Sequence record: PQ301181
Reading direction: 5' to 3' (one strand)
DNA length: 64,000 nucleotides
Source of the DNA: Escherichia phage EP02SG
Within the stretch, counting starts at the first letter, position 1; each line of letters starts with the position of its first letter. Of this stretch, positions 6,765-34,121 are shown in pieces. The translations under genes and the position numbers were made by a program. The notes beneath the pieces were generated by a model. That model worked only from the letters and a program-made list of their open reading frames with translations, searched no databases and was not told where the DNA came from.

Positions 6765-7405
6765 TGAATAAACCCGAGTTACTTATTGAAACTTGGGGTC
6801 AACCCGGTGAGATTATTGATGGCGTTCCAATGTTGGAATCTCATGATGGAAAAGATTCTGGCTTAAAACCAGGGCTTTATATAGAAGGTATTTTTCTTCA
6901 GGCAGAGGTTGTTAACCGAAATAAACGTTTATATCCTAAACGTGTTTTGGAAAAAGCAGTAAGTGACTATATTAAAGAACAAGTTGCAACCAAACAAGCC
7001 CTTGGAGAATTAAACCATCCACCTCGTGCAAATGTTGACCCTATGCAAGCCGCTATCATTATTGAAGATATGTGGTGGAAAGGAAACGATGTATATGGAC
7101 GTGCTAGAATTATTGAAGGCGACCATGGTCCCGGTGATAAATTAGCTGCTAATATACGAGCTGGTTGGATTCCAGGTGTTTCCTCTCGTGGTCTTGGTTC
7201 TTTAACCGACACCAATAAAGGGTACCGTATCGTGAACGAAGGATTTAAATTAACCGTCGGCGTAGATGCCGTATGGGGACCTTCTGCTCCAGATGCTTGG
7301 GTTACTCCTAAACAAATATCAGAATCAGAAAATTCGGTGGAAATCACCAAAAACAGTGCTGACGAAGCATTTAAAGCTCTCGCAGAGAGTTTAAAAGCAT
7401 TATAA
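6764..7405 (+). CDS. 21: Prohead core scaffold protease (gp21)
   Basis: 213-aa ORF; T4 gp21 ~212 aa; position between 68 and 22. Confidence 0.9.
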   Translation: MNKPELLIETWGQPGEIIDGVPMLESHDGKDSGLKPGLYIEGIFLQAEVVNRNKRLYPKRVLEKAVSDYIKEQVATKQALGELNHPPRANVDPMQAAIIIEDMWWKGNDVYGRARIIEGDHGPGDKLAANIRAGWIPGVSSRGLGSLTDTNKGYRIVNEGFKLTVGVDAVWGPSAPDAWVTPKQISESENSVEITKNSADEAFKALAESLKAL

Positions 7406-7408
7406 ATA
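7401..7408 (+). promoter_or_regulatory. Late promoter TATAAATA for gene 22
   Basis: Exact TATAAATA overlapping the gene 21 stop, ~31 nt upstream of the gene 22 ATG. Confidence 0.65.
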
Positions 7409-7438
7409 ATAATGTAATCTAAACCACAGGACACTAAA

Positions 7439-8251
7439 ATGATCAAAGAACAACTTTTGAAAGAAGCTCAGAATATCGAGACTTCAGTTGCTCTTAATAG
7501 TGTTTTCGAATCAGTAGAACTGTCTCCGGACGTTAAAGCTAATTTCAGCACTGTATTCGAAGCCACCGTTAAGCAGGAAGCAGTCAAACTAGCTGAATCT
7601 CATATCAAAGCTATCGCCGAAAAAGCCGAAGAAGAAGTTGAAAAGGCTAAAGAAGATGCTGAAGAGAAAGCTGATAAAAAATTGGCTGAACAAGCTTCTA
7701 AATTCCTAGACCATCTTGCAAAAGAATGGCTCGCAGAAAACCAAATCGCAGTTGATAAAGGCATTAAAGCTGATTTGTTCGAATCCATGCTTGGTGGTCT
7801 GAAAGAACTGTTTGTTGAACATAACGTTGTTGTTCCAGAAGAATCTGTAGATGTTGTAGCAGAAATGGAAGAAGAGCTGGCCGAACATAAAGAAGAAACC
7901 GCTCGTTTGTTCGAAGAAGTTACCAAACGTGATGCATATATCAATTACGTTCAGCGTGAAACCGCTATTAATGAAAGCGTAAAAGACCTGACTGAATCTC
8001 AGAAAGAAAAAGTTATTGGCCTGGTTGAAGGTATGGATTATTCTGACGCATTTGGTACTAAGTTAACTGCTATTGTAGAAATGGTTAAAGGTTCTACTAA
8101 AGAAGAAGCCGCTATTACCGAAAGTATAAATACAGTTGACAATGACGCTGCCGGTCTTAATTTTGTTGCCGAAGCAGTTGACACTACCACAACTCAGGTA
8201 GAACAGAATTCTAATGTAAGTTTATATGCGAAAGTCGCATCTCGTTTCTAA
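7439..8251 (+). CDS. 22: Prohead core scaffolding protein (gp22)
   Basis: 270-aa acidic, coiled-coil-rich ORF; T4 gp22 ~269 aa; late promoter upstream. Confidence 0.9.
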   Translation: MIKEQLLKEAQNIETSVALNSVFESVELSPDVKANFSTVFEATVKQEAVKLAESHIKAIAEKAEEEVEKAKEDAEEKADKKLAEQASKFLDHLAKEWLAENQIAVDKGIKADLFESMLGGLKELFVEHNVVVPEESVDVVAEMEEELAEHKEETARLFEEVTKRDAYINYVQRETAINESVKDLTESQKEKVIGLVEGMDYSDAFGTKLTAIVEMVKGSTKEEAAITESINTVDNDAAGLNFVAEAVDTTTTQVEQNSNVSLYAKVASRF

Positions 8252-8268
8252 TTTAAAGGTTAACACAA

Positions 8269-9837
8269 ATGACTACTATCAAAACTAAAGCTCAGCTCGT
8301 AGACAAATGGAAAGAACTGCTGGAAGGTGAAGGCCTGCCGGAAATCGCTAATAGCAAGCAGGCTATTATCGCTAAAATCTTCGAAAACCAGGAAAAAGAT
8401 TTCGAAGTATCCCCTGAATATAAAGACGAGAAAATCGCTCAGGCATTTGGTTCTTTCTTGACCGAAGCTGAAATTGGTGGTGACCATGGTTATAATGCTC
8501 AGAACATCGCAGCAGGTCAAACCTCTGGTGCAGTAACCCAAATTGGGCCGGCAGTTATGGGTATGGTTCGTCGTGCTATTCCTAATCTGATCGCTTTTGA
8601 TATTTGTGGTGTTCAGCCTATGAACAGCCCGACCGGTCAGGTATTTGCTCTCCGTGCAGTATATGGTAAAGACCCTATCGCTGCTGGCGCTAAAGAAGCT
8701 TTCCATCCGATGTATGCCCCAGACGCGATGTTCTCTGGTCAGGGTGCTGCTAAGAAATTCCCAGCTCTAGCTGCTGACACTACTACTGTTGTAGGTGATA
8801 TCTATACTCACTTCTTCCAAGAAACTGGTACTGTATATCTGCAAGCTTCTGCTATCGTAACACTTGATTCTGGTGCAACTGATGCAGCTAAATTAGATGC
8901 AGAAGTTAAGAAACAAATGGAAGCTGGTGCACTGGTAGAAATCGCTGAAGGTATGGCTACTTCTATCGCTGAACTCCAGGAAGGTTTCAACGGTTCTACC
9001 GATAACCCATGGAATGAAATGGGCTTCCGTATCGATAAACAAGTTATTGAAGCTAAATCTCGCCAGCTGAAAGCTGCTTACTCTATCGAATTAGCACAAG
9101 ACCTCCGTGCAGTACACGGTATGGATGCTGATGCTGAACTGAGCGGTATTCTGGCTACAGAAATTATGCTAGAAATCAACCGTGAAGTTGTTGATTGGAT
9201 TAACTACTCAGCACAGGTTGGTAAATCTGGTATGACCCTGACTCCGGGTTCTAAAGCTGGTGTATTTGACTTCCAGGACCCGATTGATATCCGTGGTGCT
9301 CGTTGGGCCGGTGAAAGCTTTAAATCTCTGTTGTTCCAGATTGATAAAGAAGCAGTTGAAATTGCTCGTCAAACCGGTCGTGGTGAAGGTAACTTCATTA
9401 TCGCTTCCCGTAACGTAGTTAACGTACTGGCTTCAGTTGATACTGGTATTTCTTATGCTGCACAGGGTCTGGCTTCTGGTTTTAATACCGACACTACTAA
9501 GTCCGTATTTGCCGGTGTACTTGGTGGTAAATACCGCGTATACATCGACCAGTATGCTAAACAGGATTACTTCACCGTTGGTTACAAAGGCGCTAACGAA
9601 ATGGATGCAGGTATTTACTATGCTCCTTACGTTGCACTTACCCCACTGCGTGGTTCCGATCCTAAGAACTTCCAGCCGGTAATGGGCTTTAAAACTCGTT
9701 ACGGTATCGGTGTTAACCCGTTTGCTGAAAGTTCCCTGCAGGCTCCAGGTGCTCGCATCCAGTCCGGTATGCCGTCTATCCTGAACAGCCTTGGTAAGAA
9801 CGCTTACTTCCGCCGTGTATATGTAAAAGGCATCTAA
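8269..9837 (+). CDS. 23: Major capsid protein (gp23)
   Basis: 522-aa ORF nearly identical over long stretches to T4 gp23 as recalled (e.g. GLPEIANSKQAIIAKIFENQEKDF, NFQPVMGFKTRYGIG). Confidence 0.97.
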   Translation: MTTIKTKAQLVDKWKELLEGEGLPEIANSKQAIIAKIFENQEKDFEVSPEYKDEKIAQAFGSFLTEAEIGGDHGYNAQNIAAGQTSGAVTQIGPAVMGMVRRAIPNLIAFDICGVQPMNSPTGQVFALRAVYGKDPIAAGAKEAFHPMYAPDAMFSGQGAAKKFPALAADTTTVVGDIYTHFFQETGTVYLQASAIVTLDSGATDAAKLDAEVKKQMEAGALVEIAEGMATSIAELQEGFNGSTDNPWNEMGFRIDKQVIEAKSRQLKAAYSIELAQDLRAVHGMDADAELSGILATEIMLEINREVVDWINYSAQVGKSGMTLTPGSKAGVFDFQDPIDIRGARWAGESFKSLLFQIDKEAVEIARQTGRGEGNFIIASRNVVNVLASVDTGISYAAQGLASGFNTDTTKSVFAGVLGGKYRVYIDQYAKQDYFTVGYKGANEMDAGIYYAPYVALTPLRGSDPKNFQPVMGFKTRYGIGVNPFAESSLQAPGARIQSGMPSILNSLGKNAYFRRVYVKGI

Positions 9838-25532: not shown

Positions 25533-25562
25533 ATAGTATCACACATCCATGTGTTTGTAAAC
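25533..25562 (-). promoter_or_regulatory. Early promoter downstream of alt
   Basis: Minus strand reads TTTACA - 17 nt - TACTAT; the -35 overlaps the alt stop codon. Confidence 0.55.
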
Positions 25563-27649
25563 TATCCTTGGACAAATTTAAACGGAACTGATTCTAAATC
25601 CATTAAAGATGCTAACAATTTCAATCCTTTAGGAGCACTAGTTTTTTCTACAAATGAGGAGAACGATACCATCTCATCTGATTCGATTTCACCCGTCATA
25701 GCAACCACCTCACCTGTTTCCATGAGAACATCACCGTCGTAAATGACAGCTTCGTCCAACTGGTCCGAGGACATGACTTCAGCTTGAATAAATTTAAGGT
25801 TGGATTCTAAACCTGCACCAGTGTCAGATGACGCATCTGTAATTTTATTTATCTGCAAGAGAATGCCTCTAGGCAAAATAATTTCTTGCTCATTAGGGTG
25901 ATTACTCAACTGTCCAGGATAAATCACGTTAACTTTATGGGCGCCATCAATAGCCCATCCAACGTTAACACGGATTTGGTCTGGTGCATGCATAGCTGTT
26001 CTTACTTGACTAGGAGAAATAGTAACACCTTCGTCATTATTGTCAATGTTAAGCTCTTTGCGAACTTCTTCAGGAGCAAGTCCAAGGGCAACGTTCTCTT
26101 TAAACCCACCAAAAATAATAGGAGCTAGTGAAGTAGAAACATAGTTTCTGAAGTAGAATACCTTATTTTTAACCATTGCTTCGTAAATAGGCATTCTGAT
26201 AGACTGAGCTCTATATAACGTTAGTCCTTCAGGTAAACGGTCTCCATTTAAAAACGCTGAATCAAGACCATCAATAGCGCGTTTAACTTCATCTTCATCT
26301 GCAACATCGTAAAAATCTGGTTTATACCGACCTAACAGCATATTATTGATATCGGTATACGCAGAAGAGGCATATTCACGAATAGCTCGTTTTTCAGCAA
26401 CAGAGTATTGATTAGGGACCCGATTCATTGTTATATTAAAGGTGCCTCTAGCCGATTCTCGTGCATAAGTATACATCACATTAGACAAGAACGCTGATTT
26501 ACGTTGTTTCCAAGTTTTTTCAGATACTTCAGCTAAAACGTCGTCAGCCAGTTGGAAATTATCACGTCTAAAATCTTCAAACCATTCGTCTTTAATAGAG
26601 TCTGCAATTTCATTTGCAGCTTCAACAAAAGCAGCTAATGCTTTAACAGATGTTGTTTTTTCAGTTTTAATTTTCTTAGCAAACTTTTCTAAAGTTGGCT
26701 TAATAACACTACCATAAGAAACTTCATCAGCAAATCTAAAGGATTCATCAATACGATTATAAATCTTATTTTCGATATCAGCAACTAAAGTGCCTTTTGC
26801 CGTGGACGATGCTTGGGCTAGTACGATTTCATATGCTTCAGGAAGTAATTCGGCTGTAGCTGGGCCACTAACTTCTTTAGCAGAATTTTCGTATTTCTGG
26901 AATAACTCACCTTCTTGTCGGTCAGCTTCTAAAGATTGACTTGCTGCAATAGCACGACGAGAAATTTTAGTACGAGCAATAACAGGCTTATCTTTACGTT
27001 TTTCTTCTACAGCAGCAATAGAGCCAGCGATAGCCGTTTCTTTGGTGACCGTTTCGCCGGTCTTTTTACTCACATAAACTTCGCCAACATCAGAATCTAC
27101 TTTCGTGTACAACTCTGTGTTAATGTTAGGGATGCCTTTAATATCTTCAATGTTGGCATTTTTGCGAACCATCATCACATAGGTGTGTTTACCTGTGAAT
27201 TGATACATTGCCGACAATACTTTAAAACGACCACCGGTTTTAGTAGAAACTAAACGAGCAAGAAGAGTTTGAAGCTGCTGTCCGCGTCCTTTCAATTTCT
27301 TGGTAGGGAATCGGAATAGAACTGCATCCATACGAAGAGCTTTAACCTGTTCATATACTGTATTGAAAATGGTGTTGATTGCATCAATAGGAGCAGGACC
27401 AAGGCCATTTTTCAATTCAGCGAGATTACCCTTTTCAGACAGACTCATAATAACAACATGAGCGTATTTGTCGCCAAGTTTAACTTGTTTTACAGCGTCG
27501 CCTTCGGAAAGGTAAGAGAATAAACGAACTACGATGTTTGTATCAACATCACCAATTTTCCAGACTTGTGGAACTTTAGCTTTAGGGTTCAAATTGACGA
27601 CAGGAAGACTGCCTTCAGATTCAAACACTTCATTTAATTGTTCGGACAT
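25562..27649 (-). CDS. alt: Alt ADP-ribosyltransferase (packaged, modifies host RNA polymerase)
   Basis: 695-aa ORF (T4 Alt 682 aa); position between gene 54 and gene 30; C-terminal ART-like region with STS (YVSTS) and EQE motifs. Confidence 0.85.
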   Translation of the reverse strand: MSEQLNEVFESEGSLPVVNLNPKAKVPQVWKIGDVDTNIVVRLFSYLSEGDAVKQVKLGDKYAHVVIMSLSEKGNLAELKNGLGPAPIDAINTIFNTVYEQVKALRMDAVLFRFPTKKLKGRGQQLQTLLARLVSTKTGGRFKVLSAMYQFTGKHTYVMMVRKNANIEDIKGIPNINTELYTKVDSDVGEVYVSKKTGETVTKETAIAGSIAAVEEKRKDKPVIARTKISRRAIAASQSLEADRQEGELFQKYENSAKEVSGPATAELLPEAYEIVLAQASSTAKGTLVADIENKIYNRIDESFRFADEVSYGSVIKPTLEKFAKKIKTEKTTSVKALAAFVEAANEIADSIKDEWFEDFRRDNFQLADDVLAEVSEKTWKQRKSAFLSNVMYTYARESARGTFNITMNRVPNQYSVAEKRAIREYASSAYTDINNMLLGRYKPDFYDVADEDEVKRAIDGLDSAFLNGDRLPEGLTLYRAQSIRMPIYEAMVKNKVFYFRNYVSTSLAPIIFGGFKENVALGLAPEEVRKELNIDNNDEGVTISPSQVRTAMHAPDQIRVNVGWAIDGAHKVNVIYPGQLSNHPNEQEIILPRGILLQINKITDASSDTGAGLESNLKFIQAEVMSSDQLDEAVIYDGDVLMETGEVVAMTGEIESDEMVSFSSFVEKTSAPKGLKLLASLMDLESVPFKFVQG

Positions 27650-27685
27650 AGTGTTTTCCTTTTAGTAATAATTTATATTTATGCC

Positions 27686-27705
27686 AAAAAGAGCCCGAAG
27701 GCTCT
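27686..27705 (-). terminator. Terminator after ORF 27705-27914 (minus strand)
   Basis: GAGCC-CGAA-GGCTC with AAAAA on the plus strand (U-tract on minus); overlaps the ORF stop codon. Confidence 0.55.
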
Positions 27706-27914
27706 TAATCCACAATCGGGAGCAAAGTACGATAAACTTCAAAATTGGGGCCTTTTTCGTACCCATTAACGTTATCTACGAAAACCCGATACGAATTTTC
27801 ATTAGGAAAATCTAATATAATCTGAGAGCAAGAGGTGGAAACATCTCCACCATCCTTCTTAGCTACAATAACTGTTTCTAAATAAGCTTTCATTATAAAC
27901 CTGTCTGGGACCAC
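27705..27914 (-). CDS. Hypothetical protein (69 aa)
   Basis: Small ORF between gene 30 and alt, followed by a UUCG-hairpin terminator. Confidence 0.5.
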   Translation of the reverse strand: MVPDRFIMKAYLETVIVAKKDGGDVSTSCSQIILDFPNENSYRVFVDNVNGYEKGPNFEVYRTLLPIVD

Positions 27915-29386
27915 GGTCCAAATACGTCTTCAAATGAATCCGCTTCTGTTTTATCAAAACGGAACCCTTTAATAATTGGAAGGAAAATACCTACAGTGCC
28001 TTCACGGCCTTTAGAATGAACCCAACCATTACATTCACAATCAGCAATACGTCCAATTAATTTACCTTCACGAGCTTCGGCCATTAATCGTTCACGGTCT
28101 AAATCATGACGCTCGTCTAAAGGAATAAGAACCTTTACACCGTCAACTGTTTTATGAGTTGTATCTTTAAAACCTGAACCACAATCAGTTGTAATACGAC
28201 GACAACGTGATACGAGTTCGACACCACCTAATTTGTTAGGGTCTTTAGAATGTTCATAGTATCCTACAACTTCTAAAGCGATATCAATAACTTCTTTAAA
28301 TTTAATTAGGTTCTTAGAGCGTTTGTTTTCCCAATATGAATCACGGTTTTTAAGGATAATACCTTCAAGACCTTGGTCAACATATTTTTTATAAACCACT
28401 TTAGCTTCGTCAAGATTACGAACTAACTGATTTTCAATTGGTTCAATTCGCTTAAAGCCTTCAGCCATATTTTCAAGAGCAGCAAAACGAACATCGTATT
28501 TCTGACCTTTAATTTTGCCATCAGAATAGACTTCATCTAAAGGAACATAGTCCCAGGCTTGAAGAACCATACCTTCCGCTTCTTTAGGAGAAATAGTCCC
28601 TTGAAGAGATTTATTTGCTAAACCATTTGAAGTGCTACGGTCTGCAACTTGTACTTCTTCGGATTCTTCATTATCACCAAATAAGAACGACAGGTCATTT
28701 CCTGAGCTCACAGCCTTTTTAATATCGAATGAATGATAAACTAATTCACCGTCGATTAAAACCCCATTAGGGTGTCTTTCACGAGCTTCTTTAGTCATTT
28801 CCATTAGTTCATCCGCTAATAGAGTAAGACCATGGTATTCATTACCGGCACGAGAAAAGAATTGAACACCATCATCGCGAACTTCAGCGAAACAACGAGC
28901 ACCATCTGCTTTTAATTGGGCAAATGCGGGCCATTTAATATTTTTAGTAATCAATTTCTCATCATATGCAGATGCTAACATCTGTGGTTGCAATTGAATA
29001 AGTCCAGGCCACACCTTATTCGCGATAGACACTGAAGCACCTACTTCAAGGTCGCGCATCATTACACGACGAAGGACTTCTACATCATCAGGTTTACCAT
29101 CAGCGATATAACCCATGAGCTCTTTAATTGCAGCATTACCAGTGAGTTTACGAGTGGCTAATGTGAACTCAATAAAATCCAACATGTCATCTAATTCAAG
29201 AAGTCCATACGCTTGAGACCTTTCACCAGGACCTGGCCATTTCTTAATATAATACTGGATACCGCGTGCATATGTTAAACGATACACACGTTCAAGTAAT
29301 TTGTTGTCTTTATTTTTCTTAAGGATTTCTTGTTTTGTTTTAGTAGAACCGATCGCAGCTATTTGGTTTAAAATATCTAAAATCAT
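27893..29386 (-). CDS. 30: ATP-dependent DNA ligase (gp30)
   Basis: 497-aa ORF; ligase adenylation motif KADGAR; matches T4 gp30 as recalled. Confidence 0.95.
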   Translation of the reverse strand: MILDILNQIAAIGSTKTKQEILKKNKDNKLLERVYRLTYARGIQYYIKKWPGPGERSQAYGLLELDDMLDFIEFTLATRKLTGNAAIKELMGYIADGKPDDVEVLRRVMMRDLEVGASVSIANKVWPGLIQLQPQMLASAYDEKLITKNIKWPAFAQLKADGARCFAEVRDDGVQFFSRAGNEYHGLTLLADELMEMTKEARERHPNGVLIDGELVYHSFDIKKAVSSGNDLSFLFGDNEESEEVQVADRSTSNGLANKSLQGTISPKEAEGMVLQAWDYVPLDEVYSDGKIKGQKYDVRFAALENMAEGFKRIEPIENQLVRNLDEAKVVYKKYVDQGLEGIILKNRDSYWENKRSKNLIKFKEVIDIALEVVGYYEHSKDPNKLGGVELVSRCRRITTDCGSGFKDTTHKTVDGVKVLIPLDERHDLDRERLMAEAREGKLIGRIADCECNGWVHSKGREGTVGIFLPIIKGFRFDKTEADSFEDVFGPWSQTGL

Positions 29387-29652
29387 TTGATGTCCTCGAT
29401 TTTGGTTACGGTTCTATTATAAGCCACTTCATCTAGAAGCGATTTCAGCGTTTTCTGATAAGTGGTAATCCATTTACCGAGACCTTCAACATAATATTCT
29501 GAAATGTAGATGAACCCTTGTTCAACACACTCTTTAAATATTTCTGCGTCTTTTACTGAACGAAACAATGGCCAGTCTCGAAAGAACATGTTAACGTGAC
29601 CGTAGTCACGCGTTGTGTTTTTGCCATCTGTAATATCATGAACTACAAACAT
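29383..29652 (-). CDS. Hypothetical protein (T4 30.x region)
   Basis: 89-aa ORF, 4-nt overlap with gene 30 start. Confidence 0.55.
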   Translation of the reverse strand: MFVVHDITDGKNTTRDYGHVNMFFRDWPLFRSVKDAEIFKECVEQGFIYISEYYVEGLGKWITTYQKTLKSLLDEVAYNRTVTKIEDIK

Positions 29653-29661
29653 AATTAACCC

Positions 29662-30477
29662 TTAACAATTTGTAGACCAAGTCCATTTGGACGAATCTAA
29701 AGGAAAGTTTTGAATCGTCCACCATGGCTGCATATCGGTTGGTCCTTGGGTTCGCCAGGTATACGGATTCGACGGAGCGCCAATTTGATTAGGCCATGCA
29801 CCTGGACTTGTTGTACCAGATTCTTTAAGCAAATCCGCCAATCGTTTTAAAAGATCTTCACGATCTGAATCTGAATTATGCTCGGGTGGAACCAAACGAG
29901 ATTCAATATCATCCCATGTGTGTACACGTTGTGCAGTACGGGGAATGACATCACGTTCACCACGAGCCAACCAATAAATCGGTACATTAAGAATTTCTGC
30001 TGCATGGTCACAGTGATGAGCTAAATCGTCAACGTAACAAATCACGTTATATTTTGTTTTAGCTAGTTCGAATAATTGTTCCTTTGAAGAATCATGACCA
30101 CACATCATTACTTCAGAGAAAGCGCCTGGGAACAAAGCATTCAAATTAAATTGTCTATTCAATCGAGCATCAATTGAATCACCTAGCGCCGTCACGGCTA
30201 CAAAATTATAGTCTTCTTTTAGTTTATTGATAACTCGAAGAGCATCCGAATAAGGCGCTAAGTAACGAATAAAATCAGAACGATTATATTTTTCTATTAA
30301 TTGTTTACCGAGGTTATCGTCGGTATTGAATAGTTTACCAGGAGAAATAAATTTTTCGTCCTGAATCATTTTTAAAATATGTTCTAATGGAAGATTATAT
30401 TTTTGGGCAAAATAAGGAAGTCCAGATTGCCAGCTTAAACATACACCATCAATATCAGTCAAAATAGTAGGTTTCAT
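29662..30477 (-). CDS. HAD-superfamily hydrolase-like protein (T4 30.x region)
   Basis: 271-aa ORF; N-terminal HAD motif I DIDGV (DxDGx); later ...DDLAHH... consistent with HAD motif III. Confidence 0.6.
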   Translation of the reverse strand: MKPTILTDIDGVCLSWQSGLPYFAQKYNLPLEHILKMIQDEKFISPGKLFNTDDNLGKQLIEKYNRSDFIRYLAPYSDALRVINKLKEDYNFVAVTALGDSIDARLNRQFNLNALFPGAFSEVMMCGHDSSKEQLFELAKTKYNVICYVDDLAHHCDHAAEILNVPIYWLARGERDVIPRTAQRVHTWDDIESRLVPPEHNSDSDREDLLKRLADLLKESGTTSPGAWPNQIGAPSNPYTWRTQGPTDMQPWWTIQNFPLDSSKWTWSTNC

Positions 30478-30941
30478 AAAGAGTCTCTTAATAGGTTTAA
30501 CACATCAATAAATTCAGCTTCGGTTAGTATTGTATCATCTTTTGTTAGACCGCTAGCCATGCTGTGCTTCAAAATTTTTCCTTTAGAGGCTTGTAAGGCA
30601 TCACGAAACCCCTTGTTTTGGATCGCGGCTTCAAAATATGCATTTGTGTATAATTCTTTCCACGCTTCGGAGTATCTTGAAAATGGAACTCCTAACCAGA
30701 AGAGAGTCCCACGGTCCTGAGCTCTTGCATAAGACCTTCCAGCTTGTTGTGCAGCCAATCCAGACAACCCAAATATACGTTTTTGTTGTTCAACGTTTTT
30801 CACCTTACATCCTTGGAGAAATCCTTCAAGTCCTCCGAATTGAATACCATCCATAACAAAAGGCCATTGAGCAAAGTTACTTAATGCGCATGACGGCCAT
30901 TTGAAATTGCTTCTTATTTCTAATTCAGACATCTTTAACAC
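30474..30941 (-). CDS. NADAR (YbiA-like) domain protein (T4 30.x region)
   Basis: 155-aa ORF; LSNFAQWPFVMDGIQFGGLEGFLQGCK resembles the E. coli YbiA/NADAR core (FSNFAAWP...DG...E.YFQAQK) as recalled. Confidence 0.6.
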   Translation of the reverse strand: MLKMSELEIRSNFKWPSCALSNFAQWPFVMDGIQFGGLEGFLQGCKVKNVEQQKRIFGLSGLAAQQAGRSYARAQDRGTLFWLGVPFSRYSEAWKELYTNAYFEAAIQNKGFRDALQASKGKILKHSMASGLTKDDTILTEAEFIDVLNLLRDSL

Positions 30942-31137
30942 TTATAATTTCAACATCGGCCCAATGACCATAAGCCGGTAGACGGTCTTTGATAGATAAT
31001 CCACCGTCATATTTCAGCATTTTAATTGTTTTAGTATATGGTTCAACTTTTCGGGCCCATGGGCTTACATCAGTCACACGATACGTAACTTCAACCATTT
31101 CTGTACCTAACAATTTCTGGATTAATTTATTCAACAT
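30925..31137 (-). CDS. Hypothetical protein (70 aa)
   Basis: Small ORF in an operon-like array, tight spacing. Confidence 0.5.
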   Translation of the reverse strand: MLNKLIQKLLGTEMVEVTYRVTDVSPWARKVEPYTKTIKMLKYDGGLSIKDRLPAYGHWADVEIISVKDV

Positions 31138-31324
31138 GTTTCAACCCTTTAATAGGAGATAACTCTTTACCCATACGTATGTCAGAAGTCCAATCAACCC
31201 ATTGAACAGCATACGCTTCATTGATAATTCCAGCGGCGGTTTTAAATTCAGGGAGAACTTTAAAAATCACCCCAGGAATTCCAACACCTTTTAATTGGAC
31301 TGTTTGTGCTATTAAAAATTTCAT
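31127..31324 (-). CDS. Hypothetical protein (65 aa)
   Basis: ATG start verified; early promoter 31349-31379 upstream. Confidence 0.5.
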   Translation of the reverse strand: MKFLIAQTVQLKGVGIPGVIFKVLPEFKTAAGIINEAYAVQWVDWTSDIRMGKELSPIKGLKHVE

Positions 31325-31348: not shown

Positions 31349-31379
31349 ATTATACTCTAATCCGTCCTTGGATGTAAAC
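31349..31379 (-). promoter_or_regulatory. Early promoter
   Basis: Minus strand reads TTTACA - 18 nt - TATAAT, upstream of ORF 31127-31324. Confidence 0.55.
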
Positions 31380-31993
31380 TACTTAATGAAATTAATTTCT
31401 ACAGGATGAACAACAGGTTGAGCAGTGATATATTGAGTAATTGCTTTCATGACTAGAGCTTCAGAACCAGGATTTTTCTCAACGAATTCACGTGCTTGGT
31501 TATGAGCTTCAAGTTCACTTAGTAAACCACTTCGTTGACATCCACGGTCTTGAGTACCCTGTTCAGATAAAAAGGCGACGATGTATTTTTCATCGTCATA
31601 CGGTTTAGGCAGTTGAGCAAATGTTCCTTTACTTCCGAAAGGAGAGTTATGTCGCCACATAACGCCGTTAGGAGTTTCAACCTTCGTATATTCATGCGGG
31701 CCATTTTTCTTAGTTTCTTGTTGTGGAACTTCATGGACCTTAGGGTTAGGACATTCAATAAAATGCTCATCTAAATCAGTCGAGAATATTAAAGTAAAAC
31801 AATTACTGAATTTACCAACACCGGCCTGATAAATTTTACCTTCAGAAGTTCTAATTTCACAAACTGAGCCAGCATCAGTAACTTCTAAAACTTCAAAAGG
31901 CTCGATAAGGTCATATGAGAACATGTTTTTAAGGCGTGGAGTAATATCCCCATTTTTAAAATTCATTTTATAAAAAGTATTAACTTTAAACAT
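31379..31993 (-). CDS. Hypothetical protein (204 aa)
   Basis: Track ORF begins at a TTG inside a hairpin; first ATG (MFKVNTFYK...) with GAGGA RBS chosen as start. Confidence 0.55.
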   Translation of the reverse strand: MFKVNTFYKMNFKNGDITPRLKNMFSYDLIEPFEVLEVTDAGSVCEIRTSEGKIYQAGVGKFSNCFTLIFSTDLDEHFIECPNPKVHEVPQQETKKNGPHEYTKVETPNGVMWRHNSPFGSKGTFAQLPKPYDDEKYIVAFLSEQGTQDRGCQRSGLLSELEAHNQAREFVEKNPGSEALVMKAITQYITAQPVVHPVEINFIK

Positions 31994-32005
31994 AATTTCC
32001 TCAGT

Positions 32006-32021
32006 GGGAGCCGAAGCTCCC
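32006..32021 (-). other. UUCG hairpin immediately upstream of an RBS (minus strand)
   Basis: GGGAGC-CGAA-GCTCCC; on the minus strand the hairpin is followed by ACTGAGGAAATTATG (start of ORF 31379-31993). Confidence 0.5.
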
Positions 32022-32028
32022 AATTAAT

Positions 32029-32394
32029 TTAGATATCAAATTCGTTAAGAACTACATCAAAGATTGCTTCGAGATGTTCAGGTTTAGCTCGGTTACTCAG
32101 GATATGACGAATCCAAGTTTTAACCAGAAGTTTACGATTAACACCATTCCAGCAAGGATGAGTACCTAAATCACGCTGACGGAAATCATCATCTAATGCA
32201 ATTTTAAAATTTGAACCTTCCATCGTGATTGAAACCGTGATACCATTTTCAAATCGCATATAAACGTAATTAGGAGTCATGCACTGTTCGATTTCACAAA
32301 CTGTACCGTTTTCGTGTTTCCATAAGCAAATAACTTCAGAAGAACCAGCAATACCGTTAGAAACATATTTACGTTCGAAGTTGGTGTAGTTCAT
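32029..32394 (-). CDS. Hypothetical protein (121 aa)
   Basis: ATG start with GGAG RBS; early promoter 32436-32464 upstream. Confidence 0.55.
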   Translation of the reverse strand: MNYTNFERKYVSNGIAGSSEVICLWKHENGTVCEIEQCMTPNYVYMRFENGITVSITMEGSNFKIALDDDFRQRDLGTHPCWNGVNRKLLVKTWIRHILSNRAKPEHLEAIFDVVLNEFDI

Positions 32395-33415: not shown

Positions 33416-33664
33416 TTACTTCAGGGTAATAATAAAATGACGTACTGCTTTACGTGCGGCAGAAGCCAGAGGCTTAGCATATTTCAATTCATCTTTCTGG
33501 ACCAGGATATCGCGAAGATCGGCTTGTGCCGGATTCAGATGTTTGAAATACTGTAAGATTTCGAGGGCTTCGGCTTCGACATCAATAGATGCACCGTAAT
33601 TTTCGTGGCCATTATTCCATGCATGGCGTTGCAGTTCAAGAGCGTGTTGTAATTGTTTAATCAT
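33416..33664 (-). CDS. rIII: rIII lysis inhibition accessory protein
   Basis: 82-aa ORF adjacent to gene 31; size and sequence match T4 RIII as recalled. Confidence 0.8.
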   Translation of the reverse strand: MIKQLQHALELQRHAWNNGHENYGASIDVEAEALEILQYFKHLNPAQADLRDILVQKDELKYAKPLASAARKAVRHFIITLK

Positions 33665-33788: not shown

Positions 33789-34121
33789 TCACTTATAAAG
33801 ACACGGAATAGCTTTATAGTGGCATGTTACGAATTTCTGTTTAATTTCTTTAGGTTGTTTAAGTCCCAAAGCCACAAATGGATGTGGAACATTTCGAATT
33901 TGTCCAACTGGTAGTGAAGTCAAATCACCGACTTCAACAAAACCTTCAGGAACATCAGGACCTACAGAATGAACTACACATAGTTCAGGAACTTCACCTT
34001 GAACACGTTTACCAATCACAAGTCCTGATTCTGTAACTTCTTCATCACCTGCTTGAGCGGGTTCAGAAACCAGAATGACATATTCACCAACAGCACGAAT
34101 TGGGAGTTGTACTTCAGACAT
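33789..34121 (-). CDS. 31: Co-chaperonin for GroEL (gp31)
   Basis: 110-aa ORF essentially identical to T4 gp31 as recalled ([29 protein letters not shown]...). Confidence 0.95.

Follow-up and report, generated by a model that had tools for sequence, protein, structure and literature searches.

An intact ortholog of T4 adfN in the conserved alt-30-30.x segment of Escherichia phage EP02SG, predicted to counter DarTG1 apart from its neighbors

In phage T4, resistance to DarTG1 requires gene 30.3, renamed adfN, and this gene is also sufficient for it (Johannesman et al., Nat Commun 2025, PMC11825919). The purified T4 protein strips ADP-ribose from DarT1-modified DNA, and E36A, K43A and an RB69-like truncation each reduce its activity (PMC11825919). 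Phage RB69 itself is sensitive to DarTG1 only through a T insertion at nucleotide 411, which leaves its allele truncated by 15 residues, and plasmid-borne AdfN alone restores RB69 plaquing on DarTG1 hosts (PMC11825919). Here, we analyzed the counterpart of this gene in Escherichia phage EP02SG (sequence record PQ301181), which lies at positions 30474..30932 on the minus strand of a stretch of 64,000 nucleotides, called the window below. The original prediction for this DNA had combined the NADAR-like product of the gene with the Alt ADP-ribosyltransferase (ART), the gene 30 DNA ligase and a HAD-like protein (gene 30.2) into one repair or anti-defense unit. Our analysis makes it very likely that the region is instead a conserved T-even alt-30-30.x segment containing a free-standing anti-DarTG1 NADAR, and that the neighboring genes have separate functions and are held there by inherited order.

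Resistance to DarTG1 during infection has been shown for T4 and T2, and Bas46 and Bas47, the closest RB69 relatives, are also resistant. In vitro, T4 gp30.3 hydrolyzes guanosine-ADP-ribose (ADPr) but not thymidine-ADPr (Toxins 2024). Without infection, T4 AdfN fails to rescue E. coli from DarT1, and to T5 or Bas25 it is of only weak help; its discoverers inferred a T-even factor that potentiates it. That ART and NADAR genes lie close together in T4-like phages had been noted earlier in the literature. The idea that a phage NADAR reverses guanine ADP-ribosylation and counters a DarT-type toxin, raised for the window in the original prediction, is therefore already published, having been tested in 2024-2025 for the T4 ortholog, to which the window protein is 96.7% identical. 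Both the enzymatic activity and the DarTG1 phenotype were established in that literature for the T4 protein. According to this scheme, the host DarT1 toxin would place ADP-ribose on guanine of the phage DNA and AdfN would, during infection, hydrolyze the N-glycosidic bond between ADP-ribose and guanine, allowing replication to proceed in DarTG1 hosts.

Over a 7.1-kb stretch, the window is 98% identical at the nucleotide level to Mosigvirus (RB69-like) phages, for example Shigella phage phi25-307 and Escherichia phage JS09. Because of this identity and of the T4/RB69 gene order, we assign the window to an RB69-like T-even phage (Mosigvirus). According to the annotation of a close relative, of T4 and of RB69, the minus-strand run from 25.2 to 32.4 kb follows the T-even order alt.-3, alt, alt.1, 30, 30.1, 30.2, 30.3, 30.4 onward, which is identical to that of T4 and RB69. 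All four open reading frames (ORFs) on which the proposed unit was built, namely alt (25562..27649), the ligase gene (27893..29386), the HAD-like ORF (29662..30477) and the NADAR-like ORF, are present on the minus strand. It had been allowed that their grouping might be coincidental gene order. Comparison with T4 and RB69 identifies it as conserved T-even gene order and not as chance co-occurrence; an order that is inherited is nevertheless not a proven unit.

The product of gene 30.3 matched the Pfam family Phage_30_3 (PF08010) at E=6.8e-69 and shares with T4 AdfN 96.7% amino-acid and 90.2% nucleotide identity, the length of 152 aa and the position between 30.4 and 30.2. The ORF had been described as a 155-aa frame at 30474-30941. 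The frame is there, but the GTG at 30941 is probably not its start. T4 shares, and the annotation of relatives uses, an ATG at 30932 that gives 152 aa; this ATG and the stop codon of 30.4 overlap in ATGTCTGA. DNA alignment showed that the window allele is full length because the T insertion of RB69, which removes the last 15 residues of that naturally inactive allele, is absent. The C-terminal helix is intact, with EAEFIDVLNLLRDSL present. E39, K46 and H126 (ORF numbering) correspond to T4 E36, T4 K43 and the phage-type His, so that the catalytic residues are in place. Among 52 family members, E39 and H126 are invariant and K46 is conserved, within the motif EGFLQxxK. The catalytic roles of this Glu and Lys were assigned from T4 E36 and K43 and from the contacts that PnNADAR makes with ADP-ribose. 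H126, found in LKHSM, marks the phage NADAR subtype: the third active-site residue, on the last strand, is Glu in YbiA, Asp in BC4488-type enzymes and His in phage gp30.3-type enzymes.

At the sequence level, the link from gp30.3 to the Pfam NADAR model is indirect. The check by HMMER against NADAR/DUF1768 gave no match of window gp30.3 to PF08719 at E up to 0.1, and PF08719 was matched, below its threshold, by 8 of the 56 multi-domain gp30.3-family members scanned (best E=1.2e-6). What this check did yield is the PF08010 match. A profile of the family reaches E. coli YbiA at E=0.009 over the motif SNFA..W..DG..E.F.Q..K, and an exhaustive profile search returned 1,377 cluster representatives. 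Single-sequence PDB search with gp30.3 gave nothing significant; profiles and structure models were required. The AlphaFold model of gp30.3 (predicted local distance difference test, pLDDT, 93.8; predicted template modeling score, pTM, 0.89) was compared with the PDB by Foldseek, and its top three matches were YbiA 2b3w (E=4e-5, template modeling (TM) score 0.66), Phytophthora PnNADAR 8bau and the Geobacter lovleyi DarT1-associated NADAR 8bat, all other PDB matches having E of 2 or more. The NADAR/YbiA-like identity put forward for this ORF is thus borne out by a predicted fold that matches three solved NADARs, by the retained catalytic Glu and Lys, and by the identity to T4 AdfN. Taken together, sequence and model lead us to classify window gp30.3 as a NADAR-superfamily enzyme and the ortholog of T4 adfN.

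Compared with T4 AdfN, the window protein has the same position, length, catalytic E36/K43 pair, phage-type His and C-terminal helix. It comes from a Mosigvirus, whereas T4 AdfN comes from a Tequatrovirus, and about 5 residues differ. With the DarG1/BC4488-type NADAR antitoxins (G. lovleyi 8bat, E. coli C7) and with YbiA (2b3w) it has in common the YbiA/NADAR fold and both catalytic residues, Glu and Lys; hydrolysis of guanine-ADPr, predicted for the window protein, is a further property of all three types. The third active-site residue is His in the window protein, Asp in the DarG1 type and Glu in YbiA, and window gp30.3 has neither an N-terminal extension nor a paired DarT toxin. Unlike these antitoxins, the T4-type enzyme fails to rescue uninfected E. 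coli from DarT1. From the identity to T4 gp30.3, we predict that window gp30.3 is a guanine-ADPr N-glycosidic hydrolase and that the window allele is functional. The phage would then be resistant to DarTG1, because its adfN is intact, unlike the frameshifted copy of RB69.

Compared with T4, adfN is an island of low synonymous divergence (dS) in this Mosigvirus. Its dS is 0.50, while the flanking 30.2, 30.4, 30, alt and gp48 have dS values of 1.6 to >2 (saturated) and a nucleotide identity to T4 of 57-75%, against 90.2% for adfN. Low dS, 0.55-0.80, is also seen in 30.7 (32029-32394), rIII (33416-33664) and 31 (33789-34121). This suggests a fairly recent exchange of the four genes between T-even genera, or an unusual constraint on them. 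As a cause of the conservation of 30.3 we looked for a T4-type overlapping ORF 30.3', and found no minus-strand internal ORF of at least 40 aa in the window. Shortened 30.3 products of 86-126 aa occur in several T-even records and metagenome contigs (e.g., SV76, UGJNEcP4, vB_Eco_NR1 and RPN226), some of them bearing an unrelated domain, and RB69-like loss or fragmentation of adfN may recur in nature.

To see which genes of the segment matter on DarTG hosts, we turned to the T4 HIDEN-SEQ transposon data comparing a DarTG1 host with the empty vector (bioRxiv 10.1101/2025.11.20.689424, Extended Data Table 6). This screen is decisive for non-essential genes; the ligase is essential and hence not assessable by it. 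On DarTG1, insertions in 30.3 fell from a mean of 261.0 to 0.7 (log2 fold change -7.25, q=0). Insertions in 30.2 (log2 fold change -0.12, p=0.61), 30.1 (-0.01), alt (-0.01) and alt.1 (+0.02) were unaffected, and those in modA and modB, as in alt, were neutral. The only gene besides adfN to be significantly depleted was 30.4 (mean 375.9 to 108.0, log2 fold change -1.79, q=0.014), and the table shows no further significant gene from 26 through its last row. On DarTG2 hosts, none of alt, alt.1, 30.1, 30.2, 30.3 and 30.4 matters. On K-12, 30.2 tolerates insertions at 72 of 72 TA sites and 30.1 is non-essential. The dispensability of 30.2, 30.1, alt and alt.1 on both DarTG1 and DarTG2 speaks against a unit made of alt, ligase, HAD and NADAR, as does the rescue of RB69 plaquing on DarTG1 hosts by AdfN from a plasmid.

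Gene 30.4 (30925..31137, minus strand; PHROG 2042) encodes a 70-aa protein. Because its stop codon overlaps the adfN ATG, the two genes are probably translationally coupled, and the same overlap makes a polar effect on 30.3 the simplest reason why 30.4 is mildly depleted. According to the transposon screen, a potentiating factor for AdfN would be essential, redundant, or 30.4.

The arrangement of these genes in other phages was examined in 77 viral loci with a gp30.2 relative and in 80 NADAR loci, contig names being matched between both scans. A ligase gene lies directly downstream of gp30.2 in 71 of the 77 loci, with or without 30.1, NADAR or alt, while a gp30.3-type NADAR lies within 6 kb of gp30.2 in 36. 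Conversely, about 23 of the 80 NADAR loci have 30.2 and the ligase nearby, and in at least nine complete T4-like genomes the NADAR is about 50-70 kb from the 30.2-ligase-alt cluster. This distribution also argues against the four-gene unit: the constant partner of gp30.2 across phages is the ligase, not NADAR. Clustering of the ORFs within 3 kb of NADAR in the 80 loci revealed no universal neighbor; the recurrent partners were the T4-lineage ligase and 30.2 (23 loci each). Outside T4-lineage synteny, gp31/Cpn10 and WYL_2 occur near NADAR, as do replication and repair genes (for Pol III alpha, a Dda-like helicase and RecJ), and no partner is constant. The near-invariant pairing of gp30.2 and ligase (27893-30477 in the window; loci L084-L160) is an observation in its own right. 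One phage locus (L037) has no ligase in the vicinity but a gp30.2-like gene, about 0.7 kb upstream of its NADAR.

The claim of a HAD-superfamily-like ORF with motif I DIDGV holds for gene 30.2 (29662..30477, minus strand) at the level of the fold. At the level of sequence, the check with HMMER gave only a sub-threshold HAD_2 match (E=0.019, 15.5 bits, gathering cut-off 23.8), and there was no match to Pfam NT5C or to NCBIfam models. PDB profile search returned E=0.28-0.72, with E=0.28 to deoxyribonucleotidase cdN and no significant sequence match, and single-sequence PDB search with gp30.2 also gave nothing significant. It is structure prediction that gives a HAD fold. The AlphaFold model, built from 40 homologs, has a pLDDT of 85, with high confidence over residues 1-220 and a disordered C-terminal tail. 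Foldseek matched it to HAD hydrolases at E about 4e-8 (probability 1.00); 122 PDB matches had E<=0.001, and all 50 listed were HAD-family enzymes. The lowest root-mean-square deviations and the highest TM-scores (0.61-0.70) were obtained with the 5'(3')-deoxyribonucleotidases 3bwv, 2jao, 2i7d and 4yih.

The HAD motifs of gp30.2 are D8-I-D10-G-V, T96, K132 and D150-D151. D8, D10, K132, D150 and D151 do not vary among the 40 homologs, T96 is conserved in at least 90% of them, and in the model these residues lie at strand ends or at a helix start, as HAD motifs should. A helical cap resembling that of NT5C is inserted after motif I; the HAD part covers residues about 1-200 and is followed by a variable C-terminal tail. 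With the NT5C family (cdN/mdN, 3bwv), gp30.2 therefore shares a HAD Rossmann-like core, the position of the helical cap and the motifs DxDG[VI], T, K and DD; it differs by an extra tail of about 70 residues and by the lack of a significant sequence match. On the strength of the model, we describe gp30.2 as a HAD-fold protein. It is very probably an active capped HAD phosphatase, presumably for a small-molecule, nucleotide-like substrate.

Fusions were sought among the best 150 of the 1,377 gp30.3-family representatives, and three gp30.3-type NADARs with C-terminal HAD domains were found there (P0188, P0199 and P0181). P0188 matches Pfam NT5C at E=1.6e-16, and its gene adjoins those for an ADP-ribosylglycohydrolase (PF03747), a PF08719 NADAR, an RtcB RNA ligase and a low-molecular-weight phosphatase (L161 1-7851). 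P0199, from a bacterial context, has a faint NT5C match and a C-terminal domain that aligns with that of P0188, and P0181 has a DFDNT motif. From these cases, NADAR and NT5C-like phosphatases seem to associate recurrently, though facultatively. Homology of the fused HAD domains to gp30.2 was not demonstrable: a hidden Markov model of the gp30.2 family matched none of the 150 representatives, fusions included, and hhalign of the P0188 HAD domain with the gp30.2 profile gave a probability of 43%. Other fusions in the gp30.3 family involve KptA/Tpt1, ASCH, HD, GDSL lipase and LRR domains.

The alt gene (25562..27649, minus strand) matched Pfam ADPrib_exo_Tox (PF03496) at E=3.8e-28 and PHROG 802 at E=7.6e-260. 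Its R-S-ExE catalytic triad is intact (R480, S505-T-S507, E587-Q-E589), in agreement with its earlier description as an ADP-ribosyltransferase with STS and ExE motifs. According to the T4 record, Alt sits in the capsid, enters the host with the DNA and modifies host proteins. In the alt.1-alt intergenic spacer (27650..27704, minus strand), we read a terminator-like hairpin (AGAGCC-TTCG-GGCTCT) and a T-run, followed by a late-promoter-like TATAAATT upstream of the alt ATG. The pattern scan does not list the hairpin, probably since its rule asks for a longer T-run after the stem. These signals agree with alt as a late transcription unit of its own and fit the known head-packaged role of Alt; in addition, alt is on the opposite strand in several phage lineages. 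Both features set alt apart from the other members of the supposed unit. In our reading, Alt is a late-made, head-packaged ADP-ribosyltransferase acting on host proteins, gp30 the essential replicative DNA ligase, and gp30.2 a non-essential NT5C-like HAD phosphatase.

Several points weigh against a free-standing AdfN among unrelated neighbors. The experiments concern the T4 ortholog, from which window AdfN differs at about 5 of 152 residues. Full activity is seen only in T-even infection, so that an adjacent gene could still contribute through the potentiating factor; 30.4 is mildly depleted on DarTG1, and the essential ligase is outside the reach of transposon screening. The three NADAR-HAD/NT5C fusions and the 4-nt overlap of 30.3 and 30.2 hint at a biochemical link, which a single-gene screen could miss if it were redundant. 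In the module as first proposed, with Alt nearby, NADAR could for example remove the adduct, the HAD protein process the product and the ligase seal the DNA. This module can claim these fusions, the neighborhood of P0188 and the need of T4 AdfN for a T-even factor, as well as co-oriented genes with overlapping 30.4/30.3, 30.3/30.2 and 30.1/30 junctions, an adjacency conserved in T-even and several other T4-like lineages, and the L037 locus, which keeps a gp30.2-like gene near NADAR without a ligase. We nevertheless hold it to be very improbable. No ligation step is needed, because direct N-glycosidic reversal by NADAR leaves the DNA intact, with no nick to seal (established NADAR chemistry), and AdfN supplied alone in trans rescues RB69. 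The absence of depletion of 30.2, 30.1, alt and alt.1 on DarTG1 largely refutes it for 30.2 and alt; these genes are not depleted on DarTG2 either. In addition, at least nine T4-like genomes have NADAR at another place, in other phages it is surrounded by Pol III alpha, helicase and RecJ genes, and the gp30.2 profile misses the HAD domains of the fusions. A narrower version, for which we see only a slim chance, is that gp30.2-type HAD and gp30.3-type NADAR proteins share a pathway, or that a neighbor (gp30.4 or the ligase) is the AdfN-potentiating factor. The shared pathway could be the clearing or recycling of the ADP-ribose or nucleotide product of base de-ADP-ribosylation, or action on another ADP-ribosylating defense; the hints come from the three independent fusions, from genes that overlap or almost adjoin each other in many T4-like phages, and from the L037 pair.

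An explanation of gp30.2 that leaves ADP-ribosylation aside would make it a partner of the ligase, with a capped HAD phosphatase activity directed at a nucleotide or a ligation-related phosphomonoester. The position directly upstream of the ligase gene in 71 of 77 loci, irrespective of 30.1 or NADAR, the invariant catalytic motifs and the 5'(3')-deoxyribonucleotidases as closest structures all agree with this. We find it possible, though on balance doubtful, since T4 on K-12 dispenses fully with 30.2 but not with the ligase, and tight adjacency within one viral family may just be inherited order. Capped (C1-type) HAD enzymes usually act on small molecules, not DNA ends. A literature search for "gp30.2" returned nothing. 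Another view holds that NADAR is not primarily an anti-DarT enzyme and serves the ADP-ribosylation program of the phage itself, by reversing or editing Alt, ModA or ModB marks, or degrades soluble ADPr-derived immune signals. The proximity of ART and NADAR genes is in its favor, and a preference for soluble ADPr derivatives has been proposed in the literature on contextual grounds. However, all tested NADARs, T4 gp30.3 included, hydrolyze guanine-ADPr on DNA, Alt modifies host proteins, 30.3 is dispensable unless DarTG1 is present, when it is strongly required, and alt, modA and modB insertions are neutral on DarTG1 hosts, which makes this view extremely improbable. We therefore retain a free-standing, DarTG1-directed AdfN within an inherited gene order.

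Most genes of the region are 96-98% identical to RB69 at the nucleotide level, alt.1, 30.4 and 30.8 being more divergent, and no gene except the ligase has an NCBIfam model. The ligase gene (PF01068 E=2.1e-26, PHROG 114 E=3.3e-155) encodes an ATP-dependent DNA ligase with 99.2% amino-acid identity to RB69 gp30 and with the KxDG motif as LKADG. Upstream of it, gene 30.1 (29383..29652, minus strand) encodes a DUF3045 protein (PF11243 E=1.4e-26) and overlaps the ligase start by 4 nt, as genes 30.3 and 30.2 overlap by 4 nt in T-even phages. On its other side, alt.1 (27705..27893, minus strand) is a small conserved ORF annotated in relatives (Pfam "Phage blade protein", PF24647 E=1.7e-28; PHROG 1976), whose start codon has one base in common with the ligase stop codon. 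Gene 30.5 (31127..31324, minus strand; PHROG 1690) encodes a 65-aa protein and is the first gene downstream of a promoter-like site. This site (31349..31378, minus strand; TTTACA-18-TATAAT), the best sigma-70-like match in the region, agrees with the consensus at 11 of 12 positions with a spacing of 18. As a lead only, it could drive 30.5, 30.4, adfN, 30.2, 30.1 and 30; overall, the promoter/terminator scan was not above chance, as it listed 34 promoter-like sites where 28 +/- 6 were expected.

In the alt-30.x region there is no exact copy of the T4 late-promoter octamer TATAAATA. The whole window contains 19 copies, against 7.5 +/- 2.7 expected, most of them on the plus strand at 1.8-15 kb and 52-61 kb, in keeping with clusters of late structural genes on both sides of the early/middle 30.x region. 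In the RB69 record (NC_004928), alt (7310-9397) lacks one nucleotide and, about 170 nt away, has one extra nucleotide relative to window 25562-27649, and Alt residues 472-528, including R480 and S505-T-S507, are out of frame there. The window and phage 348Ecol098PP keep the alt frame of T4. Either the Alt of RB69 is catalytically dead or there are sequencing errors in the 2003 record. Between 30.5 and 30.7, the window has a 214-aa ORF (31379-32023; PHROG 17531 E=7e-145, without Pfam match); T4 has the 95-aa gene 30.6 at this place and RB69 a short 30.6-like gene, which points to a variable slot.

The practical value of these results is in annotation and no new biology is added by them. Leads remain in the gp30.2-ligase pairing, the NADAR-NT5C fusions, 30.4 and the T-even factor needed by AdfN. 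On the basis of its model, gp30.2 can be labeled a HAD-fold (NT5C-like) phosphatase instead of a hypothetical protein, and gene 30.3 a phage-type NADAR, predicted active. The adfN of this phage is intact, from which we predict resistance to DarTG1, in contrast to the sensitivity of RB69.

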